Shown piece by piece: positions 3,610 to 10,679 of a stretch of 64,000 nucleotides of DNA. The notes below the pieces were generated by a model. It made no database searches. It was not told the DNA's origin and worked only from the letters and a program-made list of their open reading frames with translations. Both the position numbers and the translations under genes were made by a program. Each line of letters starts with the position of its first letter. Within the stretch, counting starts at the first letter, position 1. Location: NCBI GenBank assembly GCA_963720465.1, contig OY970393.1:1312001-1376000 (forward strand). The letters are read 5' to 3'. This DNA is from Methanobacteriota archaeon. Its GTDB lineage: Archaea > Halobacteriota > Bog-38 > Methanoflorentales > Methanoflorentaceae.

Positions 3610-3683
3610 GGGCCTGTAGTATAGTCTGGATAGCACAGCGGCCTCCGGAGCCTCAAACCCGGGTTCAAATCCCGGCAGGCCCG
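3610..3683 (+). tRNA. tRNA-Arg (anticodon CCG)
   Basis: Acceptor stem GGGCCTG/CAGGCCC, T-arm CCGGG-TTCAAAT-CCCGG, anticodon loop CTCCGGA (CCG at 3645-3647); CCA not encoded. Confidence 0.93.
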
Positions 3684-3764
3684 CTCTTACTCGCGGCGCC
3701 AGCGATTTTGGCCATCCGCGGCTGGACAGCGCCCGAATTTTTCGTCCGAGCTCGTCGCGCGAAG

Positions 3765-4472: not shown

Positions 4473-4654
4473 GTACTCATCGCTCCGCGATATCTGTGGT
4501 CACGGTCTTTCACAGCACCCATATAGAGCTTCCCACGCAGTCGGGTCAGCAGGGAGAGATGAATGCGTGCCTCGCGCAGAGTCCCCCCAACGAAGGCTAG
4601 CTGAAGCCCCTTTTTCGTAAGAAACCTATTAATGCTAGGATGCGCTCTTGTAGA

Positions 4655-5716
4655 ATGATGTCAGATAAGTTAGACGGCATGCGGAACTTGCTTGAGCGCC
4701 TGTCAAATGCCCACGGCGTTTCCGGGCACGAAGGGAGCTCCCGCGACATACTCACGCACGAACTCACGCCCTACGTCGATGAGATCAAGATTGACGCGTT
4801 CGGCAATCTGATCGCCACAAAATCAGGAGAAGGACCTTCCGTAATGCTTTCTGCGCACACGGATGAGGTAGGCCTTTCCGCCAAGTACATTGACGAAAAT
4901 GGGTTCATCTACTTCATCGGTATCGGCGGTTGGTTCGACCAAACGCTGTTAAACCAGCGCGTGCGACTCCACGGAACAAAAGGCGATATTCCGGGAGTGA
5001 TCGGTTCGAAGCCTCCACATATTCTCGAGGAGGACGAAAAGAAAAAACCAATCCCGATAAAGGACATGTTTATCGACATCGGTGCCACGAGCGCCGAGGA
5101 CGTCGAAGGCCTTGGCGTGAGAATCGGCACGCCTATTACAATCGATCGCCAGTTTACTCCGCTTTCGAACAACTTCGTTACGGGAAAGGCGCTCGACGAT
5201 CGGGCCGGATGCGCGATGATGATCGAGGCCATGAAACGAACCAAGGCGACGACCGCCGTGTTCGCGGTCGGTTCGACGCAAGAGGAGGTCGGCTTGAAGG
5301 GTGCCAAAACGGCATCATTTGGGCTGAATCCCGACGTTGCCATCGCCACAGAGACCAACATAGCGGGGGACCACCCAGGCATCGAAAAGAAGATGGCGCA
5401 CTTGGAGCTCGGCAAGGGCCCCTCTGTCACCGTCGTCGACGGGGGTGGGCGTGGCCTCATCACCCCCGACTCGGTGCTTCGCTGGATCGAAGGGACGGCT
5501 GAGAAGGCGCGGATCGCGTACCAGCGCGACGTCAGCTCAGGCGGCACCACAGACGCAACGGCGATCAACCTCACGCGGGCGGGGGTCCCCGCCGGCGTCG
5601 TCAGCGTCGTCACGCGATACCTCCATACCCCCGTCGAGGTGCTCAACCTGGAAGATCTCGACGACGCCGCCGAACTGGTCGCCCGCATGCTCGAGACCGT
5701 TGCGGACTACTTTTGA
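4655..5716 (+). CDS. M42 family aminopeptidase (TET-like)
   Basis: GVSGHE, SAHTDEVG, GKALDDRAG, QEEVGLKGA, GGTTDA, RYLHTPVE. Confidence 0.93.
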   Translation: MMSDKLDGMRNLLERLSNAHGVSGHEGSSRDILTHELTPYVDEIKIDAFGNLIATKSGEGPSVMLSAHTDEVGLSAKYIDENGFIYFIGIGGWFDQTLLNQRVRLHGTKGDIPGVIGSKPPHILEEDEKKKPIPIKDMFIDIGATSAEDVEGLGVRIGTPITIDRQFTPLSNNFVTGKALDDRAGCAMMIEAMKRTKATTAVFAVGSTQEEVGLKGAKTASFGLNPDVAIATETNIAGDHPGIEKKMAHLELGKGPSVTVVDGGGRGLITPDSVLRWIEGTAEKARIAYQRDVSSGGTTDATAINLTRAGVPAGVVSVVTRYLHTPVEVLNLEDLDDAAELVARMLETVADYF

Positions 5717-5761
5717 CGCTCCAAAGCGTTCAACGGGGCCGAAACTCGCGCGCGTGAGAGC

Positions 5762-5770
5762 TTTTATATA
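5762..5770 (+). promoter_or_regulatory. TATA box of the cimA-ilvB-ilvH operon
   Basis: TTTTATATA about 28 nt upstream of GTG 5798 and 37 nt upstream of GTG 5807. Confidence 0.6.
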
Positions 5771-5806
5771 GTTACGCCTTCCATTGAGAGCAAGGAAGTG
5801 ACTACC

Positions 5807-5827
5807 GTGAGGGATCGCTTTATTTAA
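5807..5827 (+). promoter_or_regulatory. Short leader ORF MRDRFI* with candidate +1 frameshift site (TTT ATT TAA C)
   Basis: GTG AGG GAT CGC TTT ATT TAA, preceded by SD-like AAGGAAGTGA; an in-frame GTG also lies at 5798. Its +1 frame is the CimA frame. Confidence 0.6.
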
Positions 5828-7295
5828 CGACATTAAGTTTTTCGACACGACGCTGCGCGATGGAGAGCAAACCCCTGGTGTGTCGCTCACTGCCGAGAAG
5901 AAACTGTGGATTGCTAAGGCCCTAGACAAACTCGGCGTGGACGTTATCGAAGCGGGATCCGCGGTCACGTCGGAAGGCGAGCGAACCGCCATCAAAGCGG
6001 TCGCCCATGAAGGATTGCGCCCCGAGATATGCAGCTTCTCGCGCGCCCTTCGGGGGGATATCGACTACTGCCTCGAATGCGACGTCGACTCGGTGCACCT
6101 CGTCGTGCCCGTGTCGGATTTGCACATCGAAAAAAAACTGCGGAAGGATCGCGACGCCGTGCTGCGCATGGCCGTGGATACGACGGAATACGCCACTGAG
6201 CACGGACTCATAGTGGAACTCAGTGCCGAAGACGCGTCACGAGCGGACGGCGATTTTCTGCGCGAGTTCTACCGTCAAGGCGTCGCCGCAGGCGCTAAGC
6301 GGCTCTGCTACTGCGACACTGTTGGTGTGCTCATCCCCGATCGCACAGCCGCACAGTTTGCTGGCCTCGCGGCGATAGCACCACTAAGCATCCATTGCCA
6401 CGACGATTTTGGCCTCGCAACGGCGAATTCCATCGCGGCCCTAGGTGCCGGCGCGACGCAGGTGCACGTGACGGTGAACGGTCTAGGTGAGCGTGCAGGA
6501 AACGCGTCGCTCGAAGAGCTCGTGATGACGCTCGAGTCATTGTATGGCTATACGACGCGCATCAAGACGACCGAGCTCTACCCCATTTCGAGGCTCGTGA
6601 GCAGGCTTACGGGCGTGCCCGTTGCCCAGAACAAACCCATTGTCGGAGAGAACGCATTTACGCACGAGTCAGGCATCCACACCCACGGGCTGCTGGCAGA
6701 TACACGGACGTACGAGCCGATCACCCCCGAGATGGTAGGACGAGAGCGGCGGATTGTGCTCGGAAAACACGCAGGCAGCGCGTCGGTGCACCTCGCGCTG
6801 AAGGAGCTCGGTCTCGACGCGGACGATGAGCAACTGAGCGATATACTGAAACGAATCAAGGAGCTGGGCGACAAGGGAAAACGCGTTACCGACGCTGACC
6901 TACAAGCCATTGCCGATGCGGTGCTCGAGATCAATCGCGAAGCGCGCATAAAGCTGCAAGAGCTGACGGTCGTGTCGGGAAACATCGTTACCCCGACGTC
7001 GTCAATCAAGCTCTCGGTCGACGATCAAGAGGTCGTCGAAGCGGGAATCGGTCTCGGGCCGGTTGACGCCGCGATAAACGCGTTAAGAAAGGCGATAGGA
7101 AAGCTTGCGGACATAACGCTCGAGGAGTACCACGTTGATGCCATCACCGGCGGCACCGACGCACTGGTCGAGGTGTGGGTGAAGCTCAGCCGAGACGGTC
7201 ACGTCATCACAGCGCGCGGCGCGCGCGCCGACATCATCATAGCGTCAGTTGAAGCGGTCATTGAAGGCGTAAACAGGTTACTAACGTTAAAATGA
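5807..7295 (+). CDS. cimA: (R)-citramalate synthase-like (LeuA/CimA family); true N-terminus needs a frameshift or a non-canonical start
   Basis: [15 protein letters not shown] lies upstream of the track start at 5880. Also [29 protein letters not shown] and a regulatory domain (GPVDAA). [13 protein letters not shown] resembles the archaeal CimA clade. First gene of the ilvBH operon. Confidence 0.8.
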
Positions 7296-7308: not shown

Positions 7309-8982
7309 ATGAACCTGAGCGGTGCCAAGGCACTTATGAAAAGTCTCGAATGCGAACACGTGGATACGATTTTCGGCATCCCTGGAGGCGTCGTCATACC
7401 CATCTACGACGAACTCTTTAATCAAGATGCCATTACGCACTACCTCGTGCGCCACGAACAAGCAGCCGCCCACGCGGCGGATGGCTACGCACGAGCAACC
7501 GGGAAAGTAGGTGTGTGCATGGCTACCTCCGGTCCCGGAGCCACGAACCTCGTCACGGGAATCGCGACCGCCTACATGGATAGCGTGCCCCTCGTCGCGC
7601 TCACGGGTCAGGTGACCACTGATCTCATCGGCAACGACGCCTTTCAAGAGGCCAATATTACGGGCATCACACTCCCGATCACGAAGCACAGCTACTTGGT
7701 TCACGAAGCGAGCGAGATTCCACAGACGATAAAAGAGGCATTTCATATCGCATCCACCGGTCGACCAGGCCCCGTCTTGGTCGATATCCCAAAAGACGTG
7801 CAGACGATGACTGCCCGGTTTGAGTATCCGAAAAAGGTGCACCTGCCCGGGTATCAGCCGACCTACGAAGGACACCCCGGTCAGATCAAGCGCGCGGCGA
7901 AGGCTATTACCGAGGCTCACCGCCCCGTAATCTACGTCGGGGGCGGCGCCAAGATCAGCGGGGCTTCCGAAGAAGTCCGTGCGCTCGCCGAAACTATCGT
8001 GGCGCCTGTGACGATGACGCTTATGGGCATGGGAACATTGCCCGCTGAACATCCACTGTCGCTGGGGATGCTCGGCATGCACGGAACAAAGTACGCGAAC
8101 TACGCCGTTACCGAATCAGACCTGATCATCGCGATCGGTGCGCGCTTCGACGATCGCGTAACGGGCAAAATCGCGAGCTTTGCCCCCAACGCGAAAATCA
8201 TTCACATCGACATCGATCCAGCCGAGATCGGCAAGAACGTCAGAGTCGACATACCGATCGTCGGCGACGTGAAGCGGGTGCTCCAAAAACTGATCCCGCT
8301 TCTCAAGGATACGCGCACAAAAGAGTGGATGGAAAAGGTGCAAACGTGGAAGCGCGAGTACCCGCTTGAATTCGGCGAGACAGGCTTAAAGCCACAGTAC
8401 ATCGTACGAGAGATAAGCAGACTGTGCCCAGATGCGGTCGTGTGCACCGAAGTCGGGCAACATCAGATGTGGGCTGCGCAATACTTTAGCCACCGCCACC
8501 CGCAAAACTTCATCTCTTCCGGAGGCTTGGGAACGATGGGGTACGGGTTCCCCGCGTCCATCGGAGCGAAGATCGGTCGGCCCGACGAGACTGTCTTTGA
8601 CCTTGCCGGTGACGGGAGCTTCACCATGAACTGCCAAGAGCTTGCCACAGCAGTCGCCTACGACGTCCAGGTCAAGGTTGCGATCTTCAATAACGGCTAC
8701 CTGGGTATGGTAAGGCAATGGCAAGAGCTATTCTACGACCGTCGGTACTCCCAGACGAAGCTCTCCGAGATCAACTTCGTGAAGCTCGCCGACGCGTTCG
8801 GCGCTCACGGAATACGCGTGGACTCGCCGAGCGAAGTAGCGCCCGCCATCGAAGAGGCGCTTGCGGTGCCAAAGCCTGTAATCATCGACTTCAGAATCGA
8901 ACCAGAGGAGTGCGTATTCCCCATGGTTCCAGCAGGAGCGGCGCTTAACGAAATAATCGATGCAAAGAACGGGAGGGTGTAG
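7309..8982 (+). CDS. ilvB: Acetolactate/acetohydroxyacid synthase large subunit
   Basis: [59 protein letters not shown]. Confidence 0.96.
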
Positions 8983-8985
8983 CGG

Positions 8986-9486
8986 ATGAAACACACCGTA
9001 TCTGTCCTCGTTCAAAATAAGCCCGGCGTGCTCGCGCGAACCGCCGGTCTTTTCAGCAGGCGAGGCTACAACATCGAGAGCCTGACCGTCGGCGTTACCG
9101 AAAACGAAGCCGTTTCGCGTATGACGATCGTTGTGGCCGGCGACGATACCGTGGTCGAACAAGTCACCAAGCAGCTCAACAAGCTCATCGAGGTCATCAA
9201 GGTAAGCGATCTCACCAAAGAGTCGTACGTGGACCGAGAGCTGGTGCTCATAAAAGTCACTGCCGACAGCTCAAATCGTGCAGAGATTATGCAGATCGTC
9301 AACATCTTCCGGGCGCGAATCGTCGACGTGGCGCCCAAGAGCCTCATCATCGAGGTAACTGGTGATGAGGGAAAACTGGAGGCGCTTATTGGTATGCTCA
9401 AACAATTCGGCATCAAGGAGATCGTAAGGACGGGCACGCTAGCTCTAGGGCGAGGACCTAAGGTGATACAAAGCGGCAAAGGCTAG
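8986..9486 (+). CDS. ilvH: Acetolactate synthase small (ACT) subunit
   Basis: [41 protein letters not shown]. Confidence 0.95.
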
Positions 9487-9692: not shown

Positions 9693-10679
9693 ATGGTTCA
9701 AATGTTTTATAATGAAGACGCTGACCTGAAACATCTAAGCGACAAGAAAATCGCAATCATCGGTTACGGCAGCCAGGGACACGCCCAAGCACAAAACCTC
9801 AAGGACTCGGGACTAGATGTTCTCATCGGTCTGCGCAAGGGGGGATCGTGGGATCAGGCGCTAAAAGACGGTTTTGAAGTGCTCAGCGTCGCAGAGGCGG
9901 CAAATCGCGGAGACATCGTGCAACTGCTCCTGCCCGACGAACGCCAGGCGGCTGTGTATAAGGCTGAAATTGAACCGCAGCTCCAAGAGGGGAACGTGCT
10001 ATCATTTTCCCACGGCTTCAACATTCACTACAACCAGATCGTTCCCCCGGCATATGTGGACGTATTTATGGTTGCGCCTAAAGGTCCAGGTCACCTCGTA
10101 CGGCGCATCTACACCCAAGGTGAGGGCGTCCCAGCACTGCTGGCCGTGTACCAAGACTACACGGGTAACGCGTTCCAGACGGCGCTCGCGTATGCCAAGG
10201 GCATCGGCGCCACGCGAGCCGGCGTGCTAGAGACGTCGTTTAAAGAGGAAACGGAGACCGACCTCTTCGGGGAACAAGCCGTTCTCTGCGGCGGAACCAC
10301 TGCACTCATCAAAGCCGGCTTTGAAACGCTCGTCGAAGCAGGCTACAAGCCTGAAATCGCGTATTTCGAGTGTCTGCACGAATTGAAGCTCATCGTCGAC
10401 CTTATCCACGAAGGCGGGCTCTCGTGGATGCGCCATTCAATCAGTGACACAGCAGAATACGGCGATCTCACTAGAGGTGAGCGCATTATCACCAATGCGA
10501 CACGCGAAGCCATGAAGGGGCTGCTCAAGGACATTCAAACGGGAGAGTTCGCACGCGAATGGATACTTGAGAATCAAGCCCACCGCCCCGTGTATAACGC
10601 GCTCACCCAACGAGAGCGGGAGCACCCCATAGAAACGGTAGGCGCAAAGCTTCGCGCGATGATGACGTGGCTCAAGTGA
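9693..10679 (+). CDS. ilvC: Ketol-acid reductoisomerase
   Basis: [54 protein letters not shown]. Confidence 0.97.

Follow-up and report, generated by a model that had tools for sequence, protein, structure and literature searches.

How does a cell translate a biosynthetic gene whose reading frame offers no start codon ahead of the catalytic motif of its product? The question is raised by cimA, which encodes an enzyme of the (R)-citramalate synthase type that opens the isoleucine pathway, in a stretch of 64,000 nucleotides (nt) from the genome of a Methanobacteriota archaeon (assembly GCA_963720465.1, contig OY970393.1, positions 1,312,001 to 1,376,000 of the forward strand). This whole stretch is referred to below as the window, and coordinates are those of the window unless otherwise given. 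A sequence-only reading of the window had suggested that the cimA frame is entered by a +1 slip of ribosomes translating a very short leader, and that the slip is set off by a shortage of isoleucine (Ile). The comparative analysis reported here points to a similar answer: we put at about 0.62 the probability that cimA is made via a conserved +1 programmed ribosomal frameshift, with a geometry like that of prfB and triggered by scarce isoleucyl-tRNA.

A synthase frame without a start codon

The cimA frame (5811-7295; all features of the locus described in this section lie on the forward strand) is closed upstream by a TGA at 5808-5810, with a further TGA at 5799-5801, and proceeds as GGG ATC GCT TTA TTT AAC GAC ATT AAG TTT TTC into GAC ACG ACG CTG CGC GAT GGA GAG CAA (5844-5870), which encodes the catalytic motif DTTLRDGEQ. 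As had been noticed from the letters alone, the motif is intact and no ATG, GTG or TTG lies between it and the TGA at 5808-5810; the first canonical start is the GTG at 5880, and a protein begun there would be stripped of DTTLRDGEQ.

In the -1 frame relative to cimA, a leader open reading frame (ORF) of six codons, GTG AGG GAT CGC TTT ATT TAA (5807-5827; M-R-D-R-F-I-stop), runs from GTG 5807, which overlaps the TGA that closes the cimA frame (GTGA), to the TAA at 5825-5827. The Shine-Dalgarno (SD)-like element AAGGAAGTGA (5792-5801), which agrees, one mismatch apart, with the sequence complementary to the 3′ end of this genome's 16S RNA (GGATCACCTCC), leaves a gap of 5 nt to GTG 5807 and of 12 nt to ATC 5814, an in-frame codon that is considered below as a possible start. 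About 37 nt upstream of the leader GTG, a TATA-box-like TTTTATATA (5762-5770) is kept in the genus and in its sister genus; its position would imply a short 5′ untranslated region for the cimA transcript. Leader, TATA box and SD-like element are thus all found where the sequence-only reading had placed them.

Inside the leader, a second SD-like element, GAGGGATC (5809-5816), is complementary in part to the 16S 3′ end GGATCACCTCC, through a pairing that needs a bulge. It ends 2-3 nt before the proposed peptidyl (P)-site codon, and its AGGGAT (5810-5815) is separated from TTT 5819-5821 by the three bases CGC. This spacing, which had been likened to that of prfB, is also conserved, with weaker versions of the element in other lineages (AGGAAT, ACAGAT, AGGGGT). 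From the comparative pattern, the proposed shift site (5819-5824) consists of this TTT in the P site and of ATT, the candidate Ile sensor codon, in the aminoacyl (A) site.

Conservation of the leader arrangement

A protein search found a cimA orthologue in 41 of 41 related genomes. These orthologues are otherwise intact (58-98% identical), and the stop-to-stop frame is 494 codons long in nearly all members of the genus, as it is in the window. The layout is identical base for base within the genus and occurs in modified form in many families, the same architecture being present upstream of cimA at 30 loci from related genomes and at 80 named loci from public genomes. The lineages that have it are the window's genus and its sister genus, Methanothrix/Methanotrichaceae, Methanocella, Methanoperedens, ANME-2 and, among the Methanosarcinaceae, Methanolobus, Methanococcoides, Methanosarcina, Methanomethylovorans, Methanohalophilus and Methanosalsum. 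In agreement with what had been expected from the window, the comparison of orthologues from Methanosarcinaceae, Methanothrix, Methanocella, Methanoperedens, ANME-2 and several further families reveals a conserved out-of-frame, SD-served start together with a conserved WTT-ATY (TTA-TTY in the synthase frame), and most lineages lack an in-frame start.

On the scale of the phylum, 401 sampled genomes were searched for the pattern WTTATY, a gap of 13-25 nt and a DTTLRDGEQ-coding sequence, with the reversed pattern as a control; 165 of the 401 were positive and the control gave 0. Among the matches listed, which are all but 16 of the 165, every real one has a gap of 13, 19, 22 or 25, and two with other gaps have ordinary in-frame starts. 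The pattern is abundant in families f2 (51/52), f3 (14/14), f12 (26/28), f21 (12/12), f9 (13/15), f11 (4/4) and f24 (6/6), and this search gave no match in f8 (0/25), f10 (0/54) or f22 (0/15); the two matches among 64 genomes of f4 were set aside as coincidences, normal in-frame starts being present there. Judged by such comparisons, the arrangement upstream of cimA is far beyond chance.

For a census of the leader itself, 150 loci supplied 135 distinct upstream regions; WTT-ATY stands in the -1 frame of 122 of them (the count of Ile codons in this group of 122 is circular, because WTTATY was the criterion by which the group was picked). The leader frame of 117 of these 122 motif-bearing regions contains a canonical start, the nearest one being ATG in 76 and GTG in 40, and an SD-like 4-mer lies at most 16 nt from the frame-0 start in 75 of 116. 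The SD motifs of other lineages (GGTG or GGTGAT) are found approximately 5-10 nt upstream of the out-of-frame start; SD spacing thus fits the out-of-frame RTG (5-10 nt), while the in-frame ATY is 12-17 nt away. The leader stop follows 0-3 codons past the Ile codon in 88 of the 122 regions, and in 68 of the 122 a canonical in-frame start is missing when only starts 9 nt or more upstream of the Asp codon of the synthase motif are counted.

The peptides vary around a recognizable core. They read MRDRFI-stop in the window, MNAWDRFI[WRG]-stop in Methanothrix, MARRDRFICQ-stop in ANME-2 and MNRR[DN]RFI-stop in Methanoperedens, with MSDCFI... or MTDRFI... in GC-rich families (f3, f12, f14, f23-25) and VRD[YC]II... 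in Methanosarcinaceae. Specific codons are also retained: the leader Asp codon is GAT in 104 regions (otherwise AAT in 6, GGT in 6 and GAG in 5) and GAC in 0 of 122, yet GAC makes up 57% of Asp codons genome-wide. The codon ahead of the sensor is always NTT (TTT in 78 and ATT in 44 of the 122), and the Leu codon of the synthase frame is TTA in all leader-bearing regions seen, TTA being 6.9% of the genome's leucine (Leu) codons. Several bases are thus fixed past the needs of either protein, and the fixed T of GAT in particular can be explained either as part of ATY or as GAU pairing with the 16S tail.

Identity of the synthase and a leucine version of the leader

The cimA product belongs to the LeuA/CimA family (NCBIfam NF002085, 643.7 bits; TIGR02090, 540.3 bits) and carries an HMGL-like catalytic domain with DTTLRDGEQ plus a LeuA_dimer regulatory domain; the closest solved structure is 3rmj, and the alignment to it begins upstream of the motif. 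NCBIfam does not separate CimA from LeuA, both paralogues matching NF002085, and the product is provisionally assigned to CimA rather than LeuA because its close relatives are labelled (R)-citramalate synthase by NCBI, JGI and UniRef and because of its synteny with ilvBHC. Specifically, cimA stands at the head of the ilv genes, as the sequence-only reading had recognized, with ilvB (7309-8982; TIGR00118, 869 bits), ilvH/N (8986-9486; NF008864, 244 bits) and ilvC (9693-10679; NF004017, 556 bits) downstream on the same strand. The NCBI protein records of relatives begin at the in-frame ATY (e.g. MVLFENIRFLD), and other pipelines give a 471-residue CimA without the catalytic motif, or TTG/ATC starts just upstream of the motif.

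The strongest new evidence is provided by a paralogue. The same genome encodes a second member of the family, 48% identical and named 2-isopropylmalate synthase by NCBI and JGI, whose gene (leuA) does not adjoin leuBCD. It too has a leader ORF in the -1 frame, MHSRDRFLHQFENEQ followed by a stop, located outside the window at positions 205-252 of region L171 (G000:C1:412804-412851). This leader reads ATG CAC TCG AGG GAT CGT TTT CTT CAT ... TGA, or M-H-S-R-D-R-F-L-H-Q-F-E-N-E-Q-stop. The two leaders have a common core, AGG GAT CGY TTT, and the next codon, in the sensor position, is the Leu codon CTT in leuA and an Ile codon in cimA. Two more paralogues of the genome, the third (43% identical) and the fourth (36%), begin at an ordinary in-frame ATG. 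Among 29 candidates for further leaders returned by a loose scan of the genome, just those of cimA and leuA look real, and a looser motif scan of the same genome gave chance-level matches only.

Leaders are equally widespread on leuA. In a first set of upstream regions (20 plus that of the own genome) a leader is present in 15 of 21, and the six leaderless regions belong without exception to families in which cimA has no leader either; in a second set, made up of 5 regions found by searching selected genomes at the protein level and 20 taken from pattern matches, it is present in 25 of 25. Examples are ...AWDRFLPS-stop in a Methanothrix-type genome and ...RRDRFLHRTHAE-stop in Methanosarcina-type genomes, and in three genomes the leader stop directly follows the Leu codon. 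A canonical in-frame start is missing from leuA in 3 of 15 and 12 of 25 lineages examined.

A further comparison leaves the sensor codon free. An unbiased search was made with AGGGAYYRY, the next two codons free, a free gap and then a DTTLRDG-coding sequence. With long gaps (34-58; the leuA class), 54 of 251 genomes matched (control 0), and all 53 of the 53 real matches read [TTT/CTT]-[Leu], the remaining one being a coincidence. With short gaps (16-33; the cimA class), 36 of 151 genomes matched (control 0), and 35 of 35 real matches read [TTT/ATT]-[ATT/ATC], that is Ile, again with one coincidence. The core consensus of the leaders is [R/W]-[D/N]-x-[F/L/I]-X, in which X stands for Ile in the leaders of citramalate synthase and for Leu in those of isopropylmalate synthase. 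AGG lies 28, 34 or 37 nt from the Asp codon in cimA and 49, 52, 55, 58, 61 or 64 nt from it in leuA, and all nine spacings equal 1 mod 3; the two coincidental matches are both without the motif, and one of them is out of register. An upstream ORF (uORF) acting independently would not need such a register, and this frame linkage counts among the points for a frameshift.

Proposed mechanism

What has been observed is the layout together with its conservation, the frame linkage, and the match of the Ile or Leu codon to the pathway; the mechanism that we propose for these observations would run as follows. Ribosomes would initiate at the SD-served GTG 5807 and translate M-R-D-R-F, and with tRNA-Phe on TTT 5819-5821 in the P site they would await Ile-tRNA at ATT 5822-5824. 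With Ile-tRNA present, Ile would be added, the TAA met and a 6-residue peptide released, giving no enzyme. With the A site empty, a one-base forward move would be followed by TTT AAC GAC ATT AAG and the rest of the frame, giving full-length citramalate synthase; pairing of GAGGGATC with the 16S 3′ end may aid the slip, as in prfB. The 2-isopropylmalate synthase paralogue would use the same cassette with a Leu codon as its sensor. Of the isoleucine-sensing slip that had been read from the window, then, the layout has stood, being conserved, and the Leu codon at the sensor position of the leuA paralogue lends independent support to the sensing part; the shifting, the position of the sensor codon in the A site, the stimulation by the SD-like element, the slowness of the sensor codon under starvation and the response to the supply of Ile (or, more generally, of the amino acid) are what we infer from it.

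A shift while the sensor codon occupies the A site is preferred because the codon after the sensor is not conserved (a stop or more than 10 different sense codons), which also disfavours a slip one step later, at ATT/TAA, one of the alternatives that had been entertained from the start. It is preferred, further, because Methanothrix-type leaders evolve as a coding frame through the sensor codon, with 3 synonymous to 1 non-synonymous changes in the leader frame vs 0 to 3 when the synthase frame is read; an in-frame ATG is destroyed by one of these changes. In leuA the P-site/sensor pairs seen are TTT-TTA, TTT-CTT and CTT-CTT, and after a slip the P-site tRNA would re-pair perfectly (TTT to TTT or TTC) or in the manner of prfB (CTT to TTC). 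Finally, only a shift at the starved codon would be expected to switch the enzyme on when its product is short.

Several observations weigh against this mechanism. In cimA, two of the three positions would re-pair when TTT slips to TTA, and the ATT-ATT of Methanosarcinaceae would re-pair poorly. In two of the three groups compared, substitution counts are alike in both frames (2:7 vs 1:7 and 1:4 vs 1:4), and in Methanosarcinaceae the changes in the synthase frame are chemically mild (I>V, V>I/L/A). A 3′ stimulatory RNA structure was not found, the minimum free energy of 5793-5900 being -26 kcal/mol vs a shuffle mean of -26.8 (z = +0.26). In 45 of the 122 regions a canonical in-frame start (ATG or GTG, 4 nt past the leader start) stands upstream of the TTA codon, which means that shifting would not be obligatory everywhere. 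The retention of the in-frame ATY, and five regions whose leader frame has no canonical start, are further points on this side and are taken up with the alternative that they favour. Lastly, the cases collected in PMC8211752, as far as that article is available to us, include no +1 frameshift in an archaeal cellular gene.

Other searches around the leader gave 0 matches in Rfam at E up to 1 in 5600-6000 and no terminator downstream of the leader (sigma-70 and terminator scan); one hairpin-plus-T match at 5745-5758, overlapping the TATA region, was not used. As for the tRNAs, a scan of the 2.31-Mb single-contig assembly by aragorn, run both with intron search and without it, gave no tRNA-Ile(GAU) and only two tRNAs with a CAT anticodon. 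The missing tRNA-Ile(GAU) is probably a detection or assembly gap, and nothing is drawn from it.

Alternative explanations

The alternative that survives best, which we nevertheless regard as unlikely, dispenses with frameshifting. CimA, and LeuA where it has no ATG, would start at the in-frame near-cognate ATY (ATC 5814 in the window), and the short ORF would be an overlapping uORF that competes with, or tunes, this weak start. Indeed, an ATY is kept at that codon in 109 of the 122 regions, NCBI annotates relatives from it, and where it has been lost another in-frame start is found instead (TTG in Methanomethylovorans, GTG in lineages with ATGAGTG), ATY being replaced only where such a GTG or TTG exists. 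The five regions without a canonical leader-frame start (L053, L058, L064, L142 and L149) retain ATY, which was counted as the sole candidate start there, and synthase-frame changes beside ATY are chemically mild. Such a start leaves unexplained, however, why the sensor is Ile for cimA vs Leu for leuA and why the register is a constant 1 mod 3 over nine spacings, and the SD is spaced for the out-of-frame RTG rather than for ATY. In Methanothrix-type leaders, moreover, the codons that follow ATY show A>D and F>S replacements, which are synonymous when read in the leader frame. The sign of the regulation would also be wrong: a ribosome paused at the sensor would cover the ATY 8 nt upstream, and starvation would then be expected to lower expression.

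A highly improbable explanation, relevant chiefly where the lineage or paralogue has an in-frame ATG or GTG, is an amino-acid-sensing leader peptide without recoding, in which stalling remodels the mRNA or exposes a downstream start, as in translational attenuation of the erm/cat type. Suitable starts exist: the in-frame ATG of the own LeuA (L171 242) lies 11 nt before the leader stop and thus overlaps the leader by 11 nt, and Methanothrix cimA and many GC-rich families have the in-frame ATG or GTG 4 nt past the leader start that was counted above. Such a peptide cannot yield enzyme in the window, nor in those regions (68 of 122) that offer no usable in-frame start; it would not require strict frame linkage, and no stable or unusual RNA fold and no Rfam match accompanies the leader.

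Termination followed by reinitiation is given still less weight. Here the leader would end at TAA 5825-5827 and translation would restart in the cimA frame at ATT 5832 or ATC 5814, for which the closeness of the leader stop to the sensor (0-3 codons in 88 of 122 regions) and one NCBI record beginning at the -12 codon (MKFFDTT..., P0011) could be cited. Most Methanosarcinaceae leader frames, by contrast, run 10-23 codons on and end inside or beyond the DTTLRDGEQ region. The -12 codon varies by lineage (ATT, ATC, ATA, GTC, GTT or CTG), which also speaks against ATT 5832 as a start, a possibility that had been named from the window sequence. Coupling of this kind would furthermore be expected to raise enzyme output at times of abundant amino acid, again the wrong sign.

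An artefact, a lesion or repair at the RNA level (sequencing indel, pseudogene, transcriptional slippage, editing or a small intron) would account for the bare absence of a start codon and nothing more, and is a negligible candidate in view of the recurrence of the layout in 165 of 401 genomes, the otherwise intact and conserved cimA and T runs just 3-5 long. Contigs of one DNA run and of three RNA-library runs, from separate studies, span 5601-6200 at 90-99% likeness and contain no inserted or deleted letters and no joints, with the provisos that rare variants could be hidden and that RNA libraries can contain DNA. Sequencing error and pseudogene were dismissed on the recurrence together with these independent contigs, RNA-level repair as the main route was dismissed on the three RNA-library contigs, and the single-base indel that the sequence-only reading had listed among its alternatives is thereby excluded.

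Departures from the layout, origin and neighbouring genes

Four of the five regions that have no canonical start in the leader frame (L053, L058, L142 and L149, which are Methanococcoides-type and, in one case, Methanosarcina-type) carry CTG AGG GAT ... at the leader position. L053, L058 and L142 have no canonical start in either frame except a TTG directly before the Asp codon, and L149 has none. Initiation of cimA in these four fits none of the models.

The fifth, L064, from a metagenome-assembled genome, reads ATG CGA GGG ATT in the synthase frame, which puts an ATG in frame and leaves neither the stop nor the leader start, while its Methanosalsum-type sisters L015 and L081 read ATG TGA GGG ATT, approximately 39 nt ahead of the Asp codon. 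Judging from these three sequences, one C/T difference would be what toggles between a normal start and the leader layout. In the Methanosarcina-type regions L095, L097, L101, L102 and L141, the leader-frame ATG (MDTKPKLRDYII...) stands about 27 nt past a TATA-like TATATTTA, which suggests that the mRNA is leaderless or nearly so and begins with that out-of-frame ATG. The cimA genes of families f6 and f13 (L013/G028 and L014/G038) have an ordinary in-frame ATG (MTTPFKDIKFFD and MTGETPFKDIKFFD), which aligns with the GGG codon of the window. The genomes of f6 retain a Leu-type leader on leuA, and the combination of an ordinary cimA start with a kept leuA leader suggests secondary loss of the cimA cassette.

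The leader core D-R-F-I (5813-5824) resembles the first strand of the synthase, I-[RK]-F-[FL]-D (5829-5846), and in GC-rich families the likeness extends to the DNA level. Speculatively, the cassette may have been born by a short out-of-frame duplication of the 5′ end of the gene.

As for other genes nearby, an M42-family aminopeptidase gene (4640-5716) ends 46 nt upstream of the TATA-like box, and a tRNA-Arg(CCG) gene is located at about 3610-3684 (genome 1315610-1315684).

Significance

Full-text literature searches found no report of frameshifting or of a leader peptide for archaeal cimA or leuA. Isopropylmalate synthase, citramalate synthase and leuA are unmentioned in the portions at hand of the 2016 frameshifting review (PMC5009743) and of the GeneTack survey (PMC3711429). 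The main text of a Methanosarcina mazei ribosome-profiling paper (PMC11456600), in the portion at hand, is silent on cimA and leuA, and its supplementary small-ORF lists could hold the leader.

If the proposed reading is true, archaeal cellular genes would gain their first conserved +1 programmed frameshift, and no natural sensor of amino acids based on recoding would precede it; it would also add a third route by which amino-acid supply is coupled to biosynthetic genes, beside transcription attenuation and T-box/riboswitch control. More broadly, it is fairly probable that a family of reprogrammable +1 frameshift switches, each specific to a codon, exists in class II methanogens and in the methane oxidisers related to them; by such a switch the charging level of one tRNA would directly set how much of the first committed enzyme in the pathway of its amino acid is translated. 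The layout touches genetically tractable models (Methanosarcina, Methanococcoides, Methanocella) as well as environmentally important methane producers and oxidisers, and since it is present in organisms with genetic systems it is directly testable. For database users, public cimA records in these groups are either truncated (471 residues, motif lost) or given non-canonical ATT/ATC starts, and those of leuA are probably affected likewise. The sensor codon is seemingly exchangeable between Ile and Leu, which suggests a compact, designable amino-acid-responsive switch.

Comparison with known systems

The closest relative in geometry is bacterial prfB, in which an SD-like element, about three bases, a CUU P-site codon and a slow A-site codon bring about an autoregulatory +1 shift. 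Both arrangements have a short 0-frame ORF with the main ORF in the +1 frame and an internal SD-like element approximately 3 nt before an NTT P-site codon (the CUU of prfB being found as CTT in leuA leaders as well), and in both the rate of A-site decoding would report the abundance of the regulated thing, closing an autoregulatory loop. They differ in that the A-site signal is a stop in prfB and a sense codon, Ile or Leu, in the cimA and leuA leaders; in that prfB senses its own gene product, whereas cimA and leuA would sense an aminoacyl-tRNA, in an archaeal host; and in that the prfB shift lies inside the gene, whereas the proposed site lies at leader codons 5-20.

Bacterial ilv/leu/trp attenuation likewise uses a very short leader ORF with regulatory codons for the pathway's own amino acid. 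The cimA leader resembles it in preceding the first biosynthetic gene and in its pathway-matched codon, but has no terminator or antiterminator hairpins and only one or two regulatory codons, and what it alters would be the reading frame instead of transcription. Transcription attenuation by the leader peptide was itself considered for the locus and rejected (fold z +0.26, no terminator past the leader, no Rfam match). Non-AUG initiation is exemplified by bacterial infC, which starts at AUU. The likeness lies in the conserved AUY codon that heads the NCBI-annotated protein; the difference is that the SD at cimA is placed for an out-of-frame canonical start, that the AUY is lost in some lineages and that an infC-like start leaves the sensor-codon pattern unexplained.

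In Ty1 the slow codon is due to a rare tRNA, and the shift sets a fixed ratio of products. Ty1 (CUU-AGG-C) and the 'hungry codon' shifts of Escherichia coli are alike with the present proposal in that a P-site tRNA slips +1 on NUU while a slow sense codon occupies the A site. In contrast to Ty1, the sensor codon of cimA and leuA is that of the end product of the pathway, implying feedback control, and in contrast to the present case, starvation frameshifting in E. coli is regarded as error and not as a conserved device of gene expression. That +1 frameshifting depends on aminoacyl-tRNA supply is described in the accessible part of the Atkins 2016 review (PMC5009743).

Within the Archaea, the -1 frameshift of Saccharolobus solfataricus fucA1 was the only one reported as of 2021, with Mg-chelatase as a further candidate, according to the sections at hand of PMC8211752. 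As is proposed for cimA, fucA1 is an archaeal cellular gene that lies in two overlapping frames and is expressed by recoding; it differs in its -1 direction, its A-AAA-AAT heptamer, its being a single species-level case and its having no known metabolite or tRNA that is sensed. Set beside these systems, the cimA and leuA case is supported, by strong comparative evidence, as a putative autoregulatory +1 frameshift in archaea whose sensor is a sense codon matched to the pathway.

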